64,000 bases of DNA, from positions 6,169-70,168 of the forward strand of contig CALRGT010000003.1 of NCBI GenBank assembly GCA_943358095.1, given 5' to 3'. This DNA comes from an uncultured Candidatus Saccharimonas sp. (GTDB lineage: Bacteria; Patescibacteriota; Saccharimonadia; Saccharimonadales; AQU-01). How positions within the stretch are numbered: position 1 is the stretch's first letter; each line of letters opens with the position of its first letter. A program made the position numbers and the translations under genes. Shown in pieces: positions 1,676 to 20,032 of this stretch. Below the pieces are notes generated by a model. It was not told the origin of the DNA. It did no database searches and saw only the letters and a list, made by a program, of their open reading frames with translations.

Positions 1676-1716
1676 CATGGCTTGGCGATGAAGCAAATGA
1701 ACTGCTTCATTTGCGT

Positions 1717-1832
1717 GGGGCGAAGAACAGTCGGAGCCTTGTGCGCCGGTACTTGGCGCACGGCGAGACGGGGTCGACCGCAAAATGCAAGGCATTTTGA
1801 CGGGTGACTCGAAAGTCCCTCAGCGCCCACCA
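1717..1832 (+). pseudogene. degenerate tRNA-Val-derived copy (tRNA-like remnant)
   Basis: GGGCG...CGCCC acceptor-like pairing. A 7-bp hairpin has loop GGTACTT with TAC central. The last 19 nt, AGTCCCTCAGCGCCCACCA, are identical to the tRNA-Val 3' end. No intact D or T arm. Confidence 0.6.
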
Positions 1833-3180: not shown

Positions 3181-3322
3181 TGGCCTAGGCTTTGCCTAGG
3201 GACTCGAACTGCTACAGTTCGCTAATTCACTGAAAAGTAAGTTTCTTTTCAGTGAATTATATCCTGAGACCGAGTCGCATCGTGCGACGCGGCTCGAGGG
3301 AGTATTCTGGGAGGAGCCTCCA
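3181..3322 (+). repeat. tRNA-Phe-derived trailer (inverted + direct self-fragments)
   Basis: GACTCGAACTG (3201-3211) is the exact reverse complement of the tRNA-Phe T-loop region CAGTTCGAGTC, followed by a direct CAGTTCG. A 14-bp hairpin carries CTGAAAAG (compare anticodon loop CTGAAGAG). It ends with TCTGGGAGGAGCCtCCA versus tRNA TCTGGGAGGAGCCaCCA. Confidence 0.6.
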
Positions 3323-3715: not shown

Positions 3716-3741
3716 CCCCACGAAAGTGGGGTTTTAATTTT
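3716..3741 (+). terminator. intrinsic terminator after tRNA-Gly
   Basis: Hairpin CCCCAC-gaaa-GTGGGG followed by TTTTAATTTT. Confidence 0.75.
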
Positions 3742-3750
3742 GGTTTGAGA

Positions 3751-3843
3751 TTCTAACCCTTGGCCTCGTCAAAATCAAATAATAGGCCAAGTGTCTTCCT
3801 CGACCGCCTACGGTCGAGGCGTTAGAGTCCCTTTACCCCTAAC
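3751..3843 (+). repeat. tRNA-Gly-derived trailer (inverted + direct self-fragments)
   Basis: TTCTAACCCTTGGCCTCGTC (3751-3770) is the reverse complement of tRNA-Gly GACGAGGCCAAGGGTTAGAg (19/20). Then a direct AGGCCAAG, an inserted 8-bp hairpin CCTCGACC/GGTCGAGG, and GTTAGAGTCCCTTTACCC, 18/18 identical to the tRNA 3' part. Confidence 0.65.
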
Positions 3844-4017
3844 TAGAAATTTGATTTATCGCGTCGATGCTAGTATTTACGATGAGTCAAAAGTAGTCGT
3901 GCCTGGCTGTTTAACTCGCGACCTTATTGAGGGCTAGCTCTAGGTAACCCGTTGATTTATTAACAAGTGTAATTTATAATTACGCTAAAGGTAATTGGTT
4001 TTATAGGGTTTGAGGGG

Positions 4018-5814: not shown

Positions 5815-6615
5815 ATGGTAGATATGAAAACACTCAACGAAATCATTGATCTATCCGGAAAGTCGGCAATTGTAACTGGTGGGGCAAAAGGTATTGGATA
5901 CGGCATAGCCTATAGGCTGGCAGAGGCAGGTGCAAAGGTGCTGATAGCAGATCTTGACGATGTAACAGCGCAGGAGGCCGCAAACGAGCTTACCGGTAAG
6001 GGCTGGACTGTTAAGGCGATAAGAACTGATGTATCTGACGAACAGGCCGTAAAAATGATGATAGACGCCTGTAAAGAGCTGTATGGCTCAGTTGATATTT
6101 TGGTGAATAACGCTGGCATTTATCCGTCTGAGCCGGTTTCTAGTATGACAGCCGAAGGATTCGACAAGGTCATGCATGTAAACCTCAGAAGTGTATTCCT
6201 AACTACTAAGTACGCGTCGGAAGTTATGAAAGAGCAGGGTGGTGGCAAAATTATTAATGTGTCATCAATTGACGCGCTACATCCATCAATGATTGGGCTC
6301 GCTCATTATGACGCCTCAAAGCACGGCGTATGGGGGTTCACCAAAAATTCAGCTCTTGAACTTGCCGAACATAAGATTTGGATTAACGCGATTGCACCAG
6401 GTGGCATAGCTACTCCTGGAGTCGTTGCCAGTAGTGGTGGTGCTAGCGGCGAGCAAATGGCAGAGGCGACAAAGGCTTTTCTTGGTAAGATCCCTATGCA
6501 TCGAATGGGCGAATCCGACGAGATTGGAAAGGTTGCATTATTCTTAGCAAGCGACATGTCTAGCTATATGACAGGTAGTCAAATAGTGGTCGACGGCGGA
6601 GTACTATTAAGCTAA
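5815..6615 (+). CDS. SDR family oxidoreductase (FabG/glucose dehydrogenase-like)
   Basis: TGGAKGIGYGIA cofactor motif, NNAG, and catalytic S...YxxxK (YDASKHG). Confidence 0.9.
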   Translation: MVDMKTLNEIIDLSGKSAIVTGGAKGIGYGIAYRLAEAGAKVLIADLDDVTAQEAANELTGKGWTVKAIRTDVSDEQAVKMMIDACKELYGSVDILVNNAGIYPSEPVSSMTAEGFDKVMHVNLRSVFLTTKYASEVMKEQGGGKIINVSSIDALHPSMIGLAHYDASKHGVWGFTKNSALELAEHKIWINAIAPGGIATPGVVASSGGASGEQMAEATKAFLGKIPMHRMGESDEIGKVALFLASDMSSYMTGSQIVVDGGVLLS

Positions 6616-17340: not shown

Positions 17341-18045
17341 GTGACTATGAAATATTCCAGTAATAAATTTTATTGTTTTTCGCCACCAGTAATGCTGGCA
17401 ACTATTATTATCGAACTTAGCTTGGCGATTTATACATTAGTTCGCTACAAACTAAATCCAAAGAAAAGATTAGTTCTTGCAATTTTGCTGTTATTGGCCA
17501 CGTTCCAGCTAGCGGAATATAGCGTCTGTGGACGGTTTAATCTTAATGCAGAAGCATGGTCGAGGGTCGGTTTTGTTGCTATTACGATGTTGCCACCTCT
17601 AGGTATACATTTGATAAAAGTAATAGCCGGCAAGAGTGCAAAGCTCTTGTTGCTCGTCGCCTATCTGTCTGCCTTGGTATGGATAGTGGCGTTTACTTTT
17701 AGCAGTAATGTATTTGCAGGCCAGGTGTGCGCAGGTAATTATGTGATATTTCGTCTAACCAGTACCGCAAATCTAGGTTATTTTATTTACTATTACTCCT
17801 GGTTGTTTATTAGTATATTTTTGGCTCTACATTGGTCGAGAAACACCAAAAAACAGACATCAAGGGCGTTAATGCTATTAGTCTTGGGGTATCTAGTATT
17901 TTTGGTGCCTACTACTGTAACAAACAGTTTATATCCTAATTCAGGCAGGGGTATACCTAGTATTATGTGTGGCTTTGCCGTTTTCTATGCGATTATCTTG
18001 GTATTCGGCGTTATGCCTTTGTCGCTTGACAAACGTAAAGCTTAA
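17341..18045 (+). CDS. hypothetical 7-TM membrane protein
   Basis: 234-aa hydrophobic ORF. No family confidently recognised. Confidence 0.55.
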   Translation: MTMKYSSNKFYCFSPPVMLATIIIELSLAIYTLVRYKLNPKKRLVLAILLLLATFQLAEYSVCGRFNLNAEAWSRVGFVAITMLPPLGIHLIKVIAGKSAKLLLLVAYLSALVWIVAFTFSSNVFAGQVCAGNYVIFRLTSTANLGYFIYYYSWLFISIFLALHWSRNTKKQTSRALMLLVLGYLVFLVPTTVTNSLYPNSGRGIPSIMCGFAVFYAIILVFGVMPLSLDKRKA

Positions 18046-18142
18046 GCTTTAAATGAATAGTATCTCGTGCGCTCTGCGGCGCGTGAAATAAAAACAACCA
18101 AAACAAAAAAAACCACCCGCCGCGGGTGGGCGCGCACGAATT

Positions 18143-18173
18143 ATAAAAACCCTATCAAGTATAGGGTTTTTAT
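18143..18173. terminator. bidirectional hairpin terminator
   Basis: Stem AAAAACCCTAT / ATAGGGTTTTT, loop CAAGT. A second GC-rich hairpin CCACCCG/CGGGTGG (18113-18129) with an A-run lies just upstream. Confidence 0.7.
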
Positions 18174-18176
18174 AAT

Positions 18177-18270
18177 GATGGAGGCACAGAGACAGCCCAC
18201 TTCAATCCGAGCCCTAGCGCCAAGCTGAAGCTTGTCGCGGTCCAGGGCTCGAAGCTCAATAACTTGACCA
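18177..18270 (-). repeat. tRNA-Ala-derived trailer (inverted + direct self-fragments)
   Basis: In tRNA sense: CTTCGAGCCCTGGACC is antisense to tRNA GGTCCAGGGTTCGAG. It is followed by a direct AGGGCTCG and CTGTGCCTCCATCA (tRNA has CTGTAGCTCCACCA). Confidence 0.6.
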
Positions 18271-18298
18271 AAATAAAAACCCATCCTTATGGGATGGG
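18271..18298 (-). terminator. intrinsic terminator after tRNA-Ala
   Basis: On the minus strand, CCCATCC-cataa-GGATGGG followed by TTTTTATTTT. Confidence 0.75.
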
Positions 18299-18307
18299 AT
18301 CTTATTT

Positions 18308-18384
18308 TGGTGGAGCTACAGGGACTCGAACCCTGGACCTCTTCACTGCCAGCGAAGCGCTCTAGCCAACTGAGCTACAGCCCC
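18308..18384 (-). tRNA. tRNA-Ala(GGC)
   Basis: Reverse complement reads GGGGCTG...TAGCTCC-ACCA with G3:U70. Anticodon stem CTTCG/TGAAG with loop CTGGCAG. T-loop TTCGAGT. Confidence 0.95.
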
Positions 18385-18420
18385 AAAATAACGTTGAATT
18401 TGATTGTTAATATTATGGTG

Positions 18421-18429
18421 ATTATACCA
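18421..18429 (-). promoter_or_regulatory. extended -10 promoter element for tRNA-Ala
   Basis: Minus strand reads TGGTATAAT about 37 nt upstream of the tRNA 5' end. Confidence 0.5.
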
Positions 18430-18503
18430 GTTGGCCAGAGCGCTTAAGCGCATCTTTTATTTTTGCAACAAGTTGCCCCAACTGAGCTTCGTCCCCAAAA
18501 TAA
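18428..18503 (-). repeat. tRNA-Ala-derived leader (direct 5' fragment + inverted D-arm fragment)
   Basis: In tRNA sense: TTTTGGGGACGAAGCTCAGTTGG (tRNA has TTTTGGGGCTGTAGCTCAGTTGG). Then GCGCTCTGGCCAACTGG, antisense to the D-arm CTCAGTTGGCTAGAGCGC (15/18). Confidence 0.6.
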
Positions 18504-18664
18504 TCAAAATTAATTATACCATGATTTATAGATAGTAAGGCTGCATCAGAGTAGTTTAGCCTAGACGCAACTTAACAGTGCATTCTGATGTACTGTAGAT
18601 TCTACTAGAAGTCATATATACTTAAGTGGCTAGTTGATCGCCAAATTTACTGCTAGCAATATAT

Positions 18665-18700
18665 GGGGCGATGCATGGTTTACTCTGCAGAGCTCCACCA
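18665..18700 (+). other. tRNA-Ala acceptor-like minihelix sequence on the opposite strand
   Basis: GGGGCG-(20 nt)-AGCTCCACCA. 5' GGGGC can pair with GCTCC, keeping the G3:U70 geometry, and it ends in ACCA. Function unknown. Confidence 0.3.
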
Positions 18701-18745
18701 CATCTTAGAACTACAGGATAATTAACAGACCTGGCTTACAAAAAT

Positions 18746-20032
18746 ATGAAAGATCAATTCAAAAAAATTATAGTCTCATTGCTTGGTAGGCAAGTTATTC
18801 GGCTTAGGGCTCGGAGTGATTTTACAGTAGTTGCTGTTGGCGGAAGCGTCGGCAAGACTGGCACAAAATATGCTATTGCTACACTGTTAAATCAGAAACT
18901 TAGAGTGCAATATCAGCAGGGTAATTACAATGACATAGTAACTGTTCCATTGGTGTTTTTTGGAATTACAGAGCCTAGTTTGTATAATCCGTTCGCTTGG
19001 CTTTTGGCGCTGATAAAGACAGAAATACTACTTCACAAAGATTATCCTTTTGACGTTGTTGTGCTCGAGCTCGGTACTGATGGTCCGGGCCAGATATCGC
19101 GATTTTCCGAATATTTGAACATTGATCTAGCTGTAGTCACTGCTATAGCCGACGAGCACATGGAGTATTTTGGCTCACTTGACGCAGTTGCTCTAGAAGA
19201 GCTGGAACTGATAAATATATCCAAAAGGACTATTATTAATAGCGATTTATGCGACAGTAAATATCTACCAAATGATAAATCCTTTGATACATATGGTTTT
19301 GCTAAGGCTGATTATCAACTAACAGATTTAGTAACCGAAAACCAAAAGTTTGATTTTACTATTATGAAAGGCGAAAGTAAGTTATTAGCATCTTCATATG
19401 AAGGTATCGCTAAGTCACAGCTATATTCATTGCTTGCTGCCACGGCAGTCGCAGATATTTTGAGCGTACCAGTTGAAGAGATTAGTTTGGGTATAAAAAA
19501 GATTACAGCTGTTAATGGGCGCATGAACCTTTTGAACGGAATAAGTAACTCCACCATTATTGACGATAGCTATAACTCAAGTCCTTTGGCTGTAAAGAGC
19601 GCTCTAGATGCTTTGTCGGCATTTAAAGGCGATTATAAGATTGCTATTTTGGGTAACATGAACGAATTAGGTAATCTGTCTGCAGCTGCACATATTGAAA
19701 TTGGGGATTATTGTAATCCAAGATATATAGATTTATTGGCCACAATTGGTCCTGACGCAAACCAATACTTAGCTGCAGCTGCAGAAAAGAAGGGTTGTGT
19801 CGTGGAGCGATTTGACAGCCCATATAAAGCTGGCGAATGGGTTAAGCAGAGGATCAAAGATGGAACAATTGTATTGGTTAAGGGTTCACAAAATGGCGTT
19901 TTTGCCGAAGAATCAGTTAAACAATTATTGTCTGATAAGAACGACGTCAGCAAGCTAGTACGTCAGTCTAAGTACTGGCTTAAAATCAAGCAAAAACAGT
20001 TTACTCAAAGAGATAACGGGGTCAGGAAATGA
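18746..20032 (+). CDS. murF: UDP-N-acetylmuramoyl-tripeptide--D-alanyl-D-alanine ligase
   Basis: Mur ligase P-loop GGSVGKTGTK, central and C-terminal Mur ligase domains (DDSYNSSP). Overlaps ddl by 4 nt. Confidence 0.85.
   Translation: MKDQFKKIIVSLLGRQVIRLRARSDFTVVAVGGSVGKTGTKYAIATLLNQKLRVQYQQGNYNDIVTVPLVFFGITEPSLYNPFAWLLALIKTEILLHKDYPFDVVVLELGTDGPGQISRFSEYLNIDLAVVTAIADEHMEYFGSLDAVALEELELINISKRTIINSDLCDSKYLPNDKSFDTYGFAKADYQLTDLVTENQKFDFTIMKGESKLLASSYEGIAKSQLYSLLAATAVADILSVPVEEISLGIKKITAVNGRMNLLNGISNSTIIDDSYNSSPLAVKSALDALSAFKGDYKIAILGNMNELGNLSAAAHIEIGDYCNPRYIDLLATIGPDANQYLAAAAEKKGCVVERFDSPYKAGEWVKQRIKDGTIVLVKGSQNGVFAEESVKQLLSDKNDVSKLVRQSKYWLKIKQKQFTQRDNGVRK

Follow-up and report, generated by a model that had tools for sequence, protein, structure and literature searches.

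Direct and inverted fragments of tRNA-Ala around the intact gene in a Candidatus Saccharimonas sp., and similar modules at other tRNA genes

Why should an intact tRNA gene be bordered on both sides by direct and inverted pieces of itself? The question is posed by the tRNA-Ala(GGC) gene of an uncultured Candidatus Saccharimonas sp., located on contig CALRGT010000003.1 (assembly GCA_943358095.1) within a stretch of 64,000 nucleotides (positions 6,169 to 70,168 of the forward strand), referred to below as the window. A preliminary description of this DNA had pointed out the order direct-inverted-tRNA-inverted-direct and considered it hard to obtain from a single integration event. Alignment, shuffling and the presence of homologous pieces in relatives show that the arrangement is real, and it is not the scar of a single integration. 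The mirror symmetry is likewise present but not special to this locus, being the sum of two separate kinds of tRNA-linked module, both of them recurrent.

Fragments on the two sides of tRNA-Ala

The tRNA was locally aligned with both strands of its flanks, with 1000 dinucleotide shuffles per flank as the null. Three of the four flank matches exceed the shuffled flanks, the exception being the downstream direct copy. A chance origin of the fragments, as matches no better than expected for such DNA, is ruled out by the shuffles and by recurrence in relatives. Ordinary tandem tRNA-Ala genes at these positions, the other outcome that would have spoken against the preliminary description, are not what relatives have: they carry the same fragments. 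ARAGORN and Infernal with the Rfam tRNA model call a single tRNA in window positions 18000-18800, the one intact tRNA of the intergenic region, and no second tRNA is called inside the modules of relatives read at the sequence level.

The upstream module is a unit of about 110 nt. It starts with an extended -10 element and a leader, after which tRNA positions 1-19 are copied; a hairpin with an A-tract, tRNA positions 21-29, and a fold-back into the antisense of positions 30-13 complete it. Its parts, in tRNA sense and with the tRNA itself listed last, are as follows.

18513-18521, minus strand: P1, candidate extended -10 element TGGTATAAT, 16 nt 5' of fragment S; read from the sequence, absent from the promoter-scan list
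18478-18496, minus strand: S, direct copy of tRNA 1-19, GGGGACGAAGCTCAGTTGG; 16/19 matches, score 23, reached by 7 of 1000 shuffles
18452-18477, minus strand: non-tRNA insert with hairpin GCAAC-TT-GTTGC and A-rich tract AAAAATAAAAGAT; recognized by cross-lineage identity
18440-18451, minus strand: fold-back junction GCGCTT/AAGCGC, sense tRNA 24-29 fused to its own antisense; from the sequence and repeat search
18428-18445, minus strand: A, antisense of tRNA 13-30, AAGCGCTCTGGCCAACTG; 17/18 matches, score 31, reached by 0 of 1000 shuffles
18421-18429, minus strand: P2, candidate extended -10 element TGGTATAAT, sharing 2 nt with the end of A; read from the sequence, absent from the promoter-scan list
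18308-18384, minus strand: tRNA-Ala(GGC), CCA encoded; ARAGORN, and 62 bits with the Rfam tRNA model

As had been described, the antisense D-arm continues directly into the TGGTATAAT element at 18421-18429, and a 36-nt leader (18385-18420) separates this element from the tRNA. The fold-back junction and the second copy of TGGTATAAT before the 5' fragment are additional to the preliminary description. The promoter scan requires a -35 match, and both elements were therefore read by eye. The strain comparison used ten metagenome contigs with an identical MurF protein and one reference contig with a 100% MurF match; the window MurF itself matches at 100% that of the Candidatus Saccharimonas metagenome-assembled genome CALREK01. 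Within this species A has one or two mismatches to the tRNA. The acceptor part of S differs between unit copies within the genus (GGGGACGAAG, GGGGATGAAG, GGAAATGAAG and GGGGCTGTAG). Folded alone as single sequences, the upstream unit is unremarkable (z = -2.0 and -1.05).

Two stretches vary strongly among strains amid near-identical sequence, one of about 55 nt located 5' of P1 (18521-18578) and one of about 10-15 nt after the -10 element of P2 (18401-18416); both have sharp edges.

The downstream module consists of the terminator T1, an antisense T-arm, a hairpin, a sense T-arm followed by the tRNA 3' end, and further terminators.

18267-18307, minus strand (also called on plus), stem 18280-18298: T1, intrinsic terminator of the tRNA; terminator scan
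18239-18286 / 18292-18339, minus strand: 48-nt-arm quasi-palindrome centered on T1; repeat search (I1)
18239-18252, minus strand: antisense of tRNA 46-59 (T-arm), TCGAGCCCTGGACC; 13/14 matches, score 23, reached by 4 of 1000 shuffles
18208-18238, minus strand: spacer hairpin GCGACAAGCT-TC-AGCTTGGCGC, then sense T-arm piece AGGGCTCG; repeat I18 (18217-18226 / 18229-18238)
18176-18193, minus strand: degenerate direct copy of the tRNA 3' end (59-76), GTCTCTGTGCCTCCATCA; 14/18 matches, score about 16-17
18140-18176, minus strand: T2, perfect 16-nt inverted repeat readable in both directions; repeat search (I3)
18113-18129, minus strand: T3, stem and T-run, with T2 and T3 together spanning 18103-18176; terminator scan

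The repeat search, terminator scan and predicted fold thus agree with the terminators and spacer hairpin of the preliminary description, to which the inverted repeat centered on the T1 loop (arms 77% identical) is an addition. In the predicted fold of 18177-18272 (minus strand), CGAGCCCT and AGGGCTCG form a fully paired stem, the sense T-arm pairing with the antisense piece. The latter matches 14/14 in two other genomes (L101 and L105). The match of GTCTCTGTGCCTCCATCA is reached by 158 of 1000 shuffles and is not significant alone; the homologous site elsewhere reproduces the tRNA 3' end without a mismatch (18/18 in L105, 17/17 in L094). Compared with L105, the window module is about 60 nt shorter, its 3' mimic is mutated to CCATCA and its fold is weak (z about -2); it looks like a shortened, decaying copy. 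Among strains the T1 stem is changed on both sides, from ATCC/GGAT to GTCC/GGAC.

All these features lie in a 700-nt gap between a membrane-protein gene (17341-18045, plus strand) and murF-ddl-leuS (from 18746, plus strand), the gene table listing ligA, the membrane-protein gene, murF, ddl and leuS as the neighbors of the locus. The length of the gap between the membrane-protein gene and murF varies among strains of the same organism.

Recurrence of the modules in relatives and at other tRNA genes

The loci compared, numbered with the prefix L, were fetched via relatives of MurF (46-62% identity) and by one metagenome pattern scan, three of whose 12 hits (L098, L103 and L104) are chance. The upstream unit precedes tRNA-Ala(GGC) in L091, L094, L019 and L096, tRNA-Ala(UGC) in L097, L099 and L106, and tRNA-Val(CAC) in L100. 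Its order is constant. The copy of roughly tRNA 1-19 comes first, followed by a 25-32-nt insert with an A-rich end, a short palindrome combining sense and antisense of the junction of the D-stem and anticodon stem, the antisense D-arm, about 50-57 nt, and the tRNA. The spacing from fragment to palindrome is 25-27 nt in four tRNA-Ala(GGC) lineages and 29-32 nt in L100 and L099. The window and L019 share a unit period of 112-113 nt. A promoter-like extended -10 element is located 5' of the unit in most lineages (with the P1-type motif in L091, L096, L019 and L099), while a second one 3' of the unit is present only in the window and L091, where P2 is likewise fused to A; P2 belongs to the tandem unit of 109-112 nt. 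No promoter is evident between A and the tRNA in L096 and L019.

The tRNA-derived parts of the unit track the local tRNA, as illustrated by GATTAG and GCAT in L094, GCGC in place of GAGC in L019 and GCGCCT in L096, and in most lineages the fragments score best against their own tRNA. The fold-back junction follows the same rule, being GCGCCTTGGCGC in L096 (tRNA GCGCCT) and GCGCATGCGC in L094 (tRNA GCGCAT), and A matches the local tRNA at 17/17 positions in L091, 15/15 in L096 and 14/15 in L094. Conservation extends to the non-tRNA parts: among the window, L091 and L096 the upstream unit is 76-86% identical and its insert (26 nt in the window) 81-85%, as against 44-62% for the neighboring leaders. 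The insert stem is GCAGC/GCTGC in L096 and GCAAC/GTTGC in the window, with both sides changed.

Copy number varies. The window has one upstream unit, L001, L004 and L006 have 1.9 copies with a period of 112 nt, and in other members of the genus two units occur in L105 and 3.2 copies (109-nt period, 97% matches) in L095. In L095 the tRNA-proximal unit has the tRNA-type 5' end GGGGCTGTAG and the two outer units have GGGGACGAAG, the hybrid pattern expected as a leftover of crossing-over between unit and gene. Scaffolding gaps occupy the position of the upstream unit in L002 and L005. The upstream unit of L055 repeats a 19-nt leader, tRNA 1-23 and a degenerate anticodon arm, without the antisense part.

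In L099 (3396-3430, plus strand), and also in L106 and L097, the upstream unit of tRNA-Ala(UGC) is separated from a TGGTATAAT promoter by a 35-nt hairpin, GGGGTGTCAGACAGTTCGCTGTCTGCACTCCACCA. Of its 13 pairs the third is G-U; the loop is UUCG, and the ACCA tail is left unpaired (-21 kcal/mol, z = -4.7). The hairpin looks like a natural alanine "minihelix." The L106 version, CAGATGG-CTCG-CCATCTG, has two pairs changed on both sides.

The downstream design is found at three further tRNA genes of the window.

1681-1832, plus strand: module after tRNA-Val(TAC), ending with a 19/19 copy of the tRNA-Val 3' end, between T1 (1644-1680) and T2 (1833-1870)
3183-3322, plus strand: module after tRNA-Phe, fold z = -6.75
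3741-3841, plus strand: module after tRNA-Gly, fold z = -5.9

Each of these tRNAs has a terminator on its 3' side, then the antisense of its T-arm or acceptor 3' strand, then hairpins, and last its own 3' end repeated in direct orientation; tRNA-Cys/Leu(TAA) and tRNA-Gln of the window have a plain terminator only. The same design occurs in other Patescibacteria after tRNA-Glu (L047, L059, L070, L080 and L084) and tRNA-Leu (L055). In L055 and L080, T2 reproduces T1 almost exactly, and in L080 a second downstream unit begins after the first, whereas tRNA-Ala of the window has one. A 12-nt hairpin core, TGAACTGCTTCA, is invariant and occupies the same place in the tRNA-Val module of the window (fold z = -4.2), in L102 and in two distant Patescibacteria (L047 and L059).

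The L102 locus, from the same genus, combines features of two modules. Its T1 after tRNA-Ala is identical to the T1 of tRNA-Val in the window, and its module (fold z = -7.35) is about 85% identical to the tRNA-Val module; despite this tRNA-Val-like body, both its ends match tRNA-Ala. Between the two modules seven pairs differ on both sides. Within the genus, stem changes in L101 weaken the structure without compensation (-25.5 kcal/mol versus -39.2 in the window). The two kinds of module may occur separately, with only the upstream unit in L091 and only the downstream module in L012, and neither is found in L016-L018, L022, L023, L026 and L032. Since several relatives lack one or both, the modules are dispensable.

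A census of the flanks covered the 52 tRNAs with enough flank in the window and the MurF-fetched loci, the pattern-scan loci being excluded as biased by their pattern. Copies of the 3' 16-mer (up to two mismatches, within 350 nt) occur downstream of 9/52 tRNAs and upstream of none (0/52), with 0 in reversed-sequence controls. Copies of the 5' 16-mer occur upstream of 3/52 tRNAs (5/52 with up to three mismatches) and downstream of 0-1.

The antisense piece of every module is predicted to pair with the adjacent sense copy as a local hairpin. In 13 of 15 downstream modules, a set of partly related cases, the sense strand folds more stably than its complement, by 4.1 kcal/mol on average, with 56 versus 39 G-U pairs. 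This bias in predicted folds is suggestive and leans toward structure or constraint at the RNA level. The preliminary description had proposed alternative pairings with the two halves of the tRNA, or cruciform DNA. Alternative pairing is possible in principle, given the 48-nt-arm quasi-palindrome, which is formed by the 3' half of the tRNA, T1 and the antisense piece, and given the duplex of A with tRNA 13-30. This duplex appears in the predicted minimum free energy fold of the long precursor (S through the tRNA) in 5/5 lineages, with an advantage of 7-15 kcal/mol over separate folding of leader and tRNA, in a model that ignores tertiary structure, modification and the order of synthesis.

Runs of N are located exactly inside tRNA-linked repeats in L002, L005 and L080. 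Such repeats break short-read assemblies, and copy numbers in metagenome-assembled genomes may therefore be underestimated.

Comparison with known systems

The closest parallel is offered by the tRNA-linked repeats (TLRs) of Escherichia coli, known since 1978, which comprise the 178-bp units linked to tyrT and tyrV (RttR) and, behind rRNA operons, rrA, rrB and rrF (Egan and Landy, 1978; Rudd, 1999; Stenum et al., 2021, PMC8144298). The last of these papers describes 22 TLRs in ten loci, with 1-5 per locus, each directly 3' of a tRNA or 5S rRNA gene and ending in 18-19 bp that repeat the 3' end of this gene. Dual terminators flank the three rRNA-linked TLRs, which are expressed through read-through, and the function of TLRs is given as not established. 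Inspection of the tyrV-linked 178-bp units revealed an inverted copy of tRNA 56-77, GGGGAAGGATGAGAAGCTTCGA, a direct T-arm-like piece and a direct 19-mer, so that they share the inverted-plus-direct internal design with the modules of Patescibacteria.

The likeness covers position, directly 3' of the tRNA and in the same orientation, for tRNA-Ala (module 18176-18307, minus strand), -Val, -Phe and -Gly. The identity to the 3' end is 14/18 for tRNA-Ala of the window (not significant alone), 18/18 in L105, 17/17 in L094 and 19/19 for tRNA-Val of the window. The dual-terminator layout corresponds to T1, module and T2/T3 in the window, and multiple copies per locus to the second unit of L080 and the T1-derived T2 of L055. 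The downstream half is thus a TLR by design, a likeness of design only: a blastn search with the tRNA-Val module of the window against all complete E. coli genomes (20,395 records) gave no match, and the Rfam scans of the window modules matched no such family. The host also differs from E. coli, being a Patescibacterium with a very small genome. The TLR description consulted mentions no 5' counterpart in E. coli, and E. coli itself was not surveyed for one; the promoter-bearing upstream unit, a mirror-image version on the promoter side, appears to be additional here. Literature searches turned up no relevant account of modules of this kind, either for Saccharibacteria or for the Candidate Phyla Radiation.

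Genomes of Patescibacteria are small and gene-dense, and the inverted-plus-direct design is found at about one in six of their tRNA genes sampled. Either a very general mutational process acts at the ends of tRNA genes or the modules have a conserved use, alternatives that can be tested across phyla. E. coli TLRs, which have had no accepted origin or function since 1978, thereby gain a comparative handle. The 5' version, with a candidate promoter in each copy and a copy number that varies among strains of one genus, is a natural handle on the possible tuning of a single-copy tRNA. In annotation these repeats could pass for integration scars or pseudo-tRNAs.

Tandem inversion duplications, reportedly studied in Salmonella by the Roth laboratory, are said to be of kilobase scale, short-lived and recovered under laboratory selection for gene dosage. 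They resemble the present modules in the direct-inverted-direct order, junctions at short palindromes or hairpins, remodeling by deletion, expansion and contraction of repeats, and arms that are kept alike. In the window, the junction within the order S, A, tRNA is GCGCTT/AAGCGC; for the tRNA 3' half and its antisense and sense pieces, the first junction is the T1 loop and the second the spacer hairpin. The pieces here are, however, 14-20 nt long, lie within modules of about 100-200 nt and are kept across deep lineages, and no intermediate was observed. Homogenization of inverted-repeat arms by template switching is described in PMC8604942.

Two further systems are less alike. The attL and attR sites of prophages and islands share with the modules a direct repeat of the tRNA segment between T-loop and 3' end, placed behind an intact tRNA gene, but the intervals here span 90-215 nt without integrase or gene, contain antisense copies, are accompanied by a 5' mirror repeat and gave only chance hits in the viral-contig scans. 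Split and circularly permuted tRNA genes, as in Nanoarchaeum equitans and Cyanidioschyzon merolae, also comprise tRNA fragments with complementary sequences. The tRNA is intact here, the fragments lack an anticodon arm and cannot form a tRNA, and the host is bacterial; bacteria are not known to have the splicing endonuclease that such systems need.

Origin of the modules and alternative readings

With roughly even confidence, and partly by inference, we favor the explanation that each module arose by partial duplication of one end of the gene, with inverted pieces made by snap-back, copy number set by unequal crossing-over, and transcription as leader and trailer. The upstream duplication would bring the promoter and the downstream duplication the terminator, with end-points at natural hairpins, namely the D-arm/anticodon-stem region, the T-arm and the terminator. 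Duplication of these end signals is suggested because P1 and P2 are both TGGTATAAT, T2 copies T1 in L055 and L080, and L055 has as its upstream unit no more than a truncated copy with a repeated leader. The explanation also draws on the recurrence of both designs, the varying copy number with its hybrid unit, the tracking of the local tRNA, the flank census, the E. coli precedent and the dispensability of the modules. The inverted middle piece could have arisen by snap-back (template-switch) copying of the tandem-inversion-duplication type, as judged from the order of the pieces and from junctions at a palindrome (GCGCTT/AAGCGC) and hairpin loops (the T1 loop); later remodeling by deletion would leave the direct-inverted-direct order. 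Unequal crossing-over would then expand and contract the array and, together with hairpin-templated correction, keep the fragments matched to the tRNA. The modules may be transcribed as the 5' leader of the pre-tRNA and as a trailer by read-through of T1, adding promoter copies upstream and terminator copies downstream, while antisense arms held by the adjoining sense copies would leave the tRNA free to fold and be excised. Any additional role of the modules, such as that of small RNAs, is unproven here just as in the E. coli TLRs.

Several observations weigh against the duplication explanation. The 26-nt insert is far better conserved than the leaders, with the L096 stem changed on both sides, and the TGAACTGCTTCA core is invariant across Saccharibacteria and two distant Patescibacteria; both point to selection on the modules themselves or exchange between lineages, as simple by-products would not be conserved in this way. 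The sense-strand fold advantage in 13/15 downstream modules and an architecture kept across lineages at 46-62% MurF identity, a long time for unselected DNA in small genomes, weigh in the same direction. No snap-back intermediates were seen, the origin being judged from piece order and junctions. The conserved insert and hairpin core argue for selection acting on some modules, at least, in their own right, and two functional readings were therefore retained.

In the first, which is tentative, the upstream unit is a cis antisense switch: A would block the cloverleaf in transcripts from P1, S would act as an anti-antisense holding A in a three-way junction, and the S/A balance or the choice between P1 and P2 would set the level of tRNA-Ala. 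The predicted precursor folds described above are consistent with such a switch, although their energy model leaves out co-transcriptional order, and S and A, made first, could pair at once. The complementarity of A to the local tRNA is kept over 14-17 nt in divergent lineages, but DNA-level correction of inverted repeats would also maintain it, and one or two mismatches occur within the species. The insert between S and A is conserved, and in L096 and L019, where no promoter is evident between A and the tRNA, A would always be part of the transcript; in the window and L091, by contrast, a candidate promoter follows A, and many transcripts would be without it. The unit is also absent from several relatives. 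A broader and equally tentative proposal is that TLRs, far from being debris, are old, widespread accessory RNA modules of tRNA genes, from E. coli to Patescibacteria, each designed to hold one end of the partner tRNA in copied and base-paired form. The 5' version would be an antisense/anti-antisense leader switch whose strain-variable copy number would tune the maturation or the level of a single-copy tRNA.

The second functional reading, somewhat more doubtful, regards the modules, chiefly the downstream ones, as genes of stable small RNAs with tRNA-like ends (an antisense:sense T-stem/acceptor helix and NCCA), excised by tRNA-processing enzymes and acting in trans, for example by protein binding or mimicry of uncharged tRNA. 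The predicted folds are very stable in L102 and in the tRNA-Phe and tRNA-Gly modules of the window, the sense strand folding better than the antisense, and the hairpin core is invariant across classes. The weak fold of the tRNA-Ala module of the window, with its lost nucleotides and CCATCA end, the uncompensated stem changes of L101, the missing downstream module of L091 and the lack of a match to an Rfam family are at odds with such a role. As for the seven both-sided pair changes between the tRNA-Val module and the tRNA-Ala module of L102, hairpin-templated correction of DNA also predicts apparent covariation. Alanyl-tRNA synthetase recognizes G3-U70 as the basis for charging, while the terminal helix here has A3-U70, and charging with alanine is not expected. 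In E. coli, according to PMC8144298, the TLRs RrA/B/F are transcribed, processed and bind Hfq and CsrA in vitro.

It is improbable, and was already disfavored, that the fragments are neutral debris of former tandem or inverted tRNA-Ala genes with no common mechanism or role. Such debris would fit the occurrence of tRNA-Ala(GGC) on either strand and at varied distances from murF among Saccharibacteria, the truncated pseudo-tRNA that forms the upstream unit of L055, and a relic in the window (GGGGC...GCTCCACCA, 18665-18700, plus strand), also additional to the preliminary description, at the place where L023, L026 and L028 have an intact gene. It would not produce an identical order and spacing of pieces at different tRNA genes in lineages with different tRNA sequences, fragments that fit the present local tRNA and not an ancestral one, the strict asymmetry of the 16-mer census, with 3' copies only downstream and 5' copies only upstream, or conserved non-tRNA parts.

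Least probable, and unlikely, are att-site scars or miniature non-autonomous elements of tRNA-targeting integrases, whose integration duplicates the tRNA segment reaching from the crossover point to the end of the gene: the intervals are bounded at 90-215 nt, uniformly small with no large version seen, geneless (overlapped by only spurious ORFs of 47-53 aa) and without adjacent integrase, and the antisense copies and 5' repeats are left unaccounted for. The direct 3' copies do consistently begin in the T-loop (positions 58-60) and reach the 3' end over 17-20 nt, the usual extent of the identity block for integration of the T-loop type. The module after tRNA-Ala is strain-variable, with a tRNA-Val-type T1 and core in L102, and in L028 a different tRNA-Ala has replaced the old gene, leaving its 5' 18 nt. 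No empty/filled pair of sites with exact boundaries was found, L091 lacking the downstream module and L102 having a different one. A phage or plasmid origin was rejected because viral contigs, scanned once for the unit pattern and once for the hairpin-core pattern, gave only chance hits in high-GC coding DNA.

Other candidates were also rejected. A known RNA family is excluded because Rfam, applied to this region as well as to the entire window, returned just tRNAs and a distant SAM riboswitch. For a T-box or other tRNA-sensing leader, the Rfam search of positions 17500-19300 (E up to 10) gave nothing beyond the tRNA at the gathering score, only weak matches to microRNA and sRNA models. tmRNA or two-piece tmRNA, prompted by the GGGGACG start and ...CCACCA ends, was called by ARAGORN in none of the sources scanned; the modules also fall short of the necessary length and do not contain a tag frame. 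An invertible promoter between A and tRNA 13-30, with a spacer of about 55 nt, would destroy the tRNA on inversion, and no inverted variant occurs in the 11 strain loci. A long-range leader-trailer stem of S with the downstream GAGCTTCGAGCCC (repeat I5) was dropped because L019 does not show it and the trailer module is missing from L091. The outer fragments as a second acceptor stem (S GGGGACG versus 3' TGCCTCC) give one compensated pair and one mismatch and are unsupported elsewhere.

The relic mentioned above, GGGGCGATGCATGGTTTACTCTGCAGAGCTCCACCA (36 nt, 18665-18700, plus strand), consists of the acceptor GGGGC and the 3' end GCTCCACCA around a TGCA/TGCA hairpin and ends 45 nt before the start codon of murF. 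Because L023, L026 and L028 have an intact tRNA-Ala(GGC) at the same place and on the same strand, it is probably what is left of an ancestral tRNA-Ala gene after an internal deletion; it is conserved within the genus. In L028 a very different tRNA-Ala(GGC) (3868-3942) takes the place of the type seen in its close relatives L023 and L026, and in the sequence 5' of it (3820-3867) the first 18 nt of the old gene, the hairpin TCCGCCAGCTGGCGGA and AGAGCGC persist; both flanks are unchanged. More generally, tRNA-Ala(GGC) lies near murF in many Saccharibacteria (L012-L032, L091 and L094), but in both orientations and with distances that range between 59 nt and about 3.4 kb, indicating repeated rearrangement.

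A conserved hairpin-forming element, TCGTGCGC...(A-rich)...CCACCCGCCGCGGGTGGGCGCGCACGA, is located at 18065-18140 (z = -3.1 on the plus strand; no Rfam match). It follows the membrane-protein gene in the window, L091 and L094 and adjoins tRNA-Ala in L012, L017, L023, L026 and L028. The SAM riboswitch (RF00162, 49403-49511, plus strand, 57.9 bits) is unrelated to the tRNA modules.

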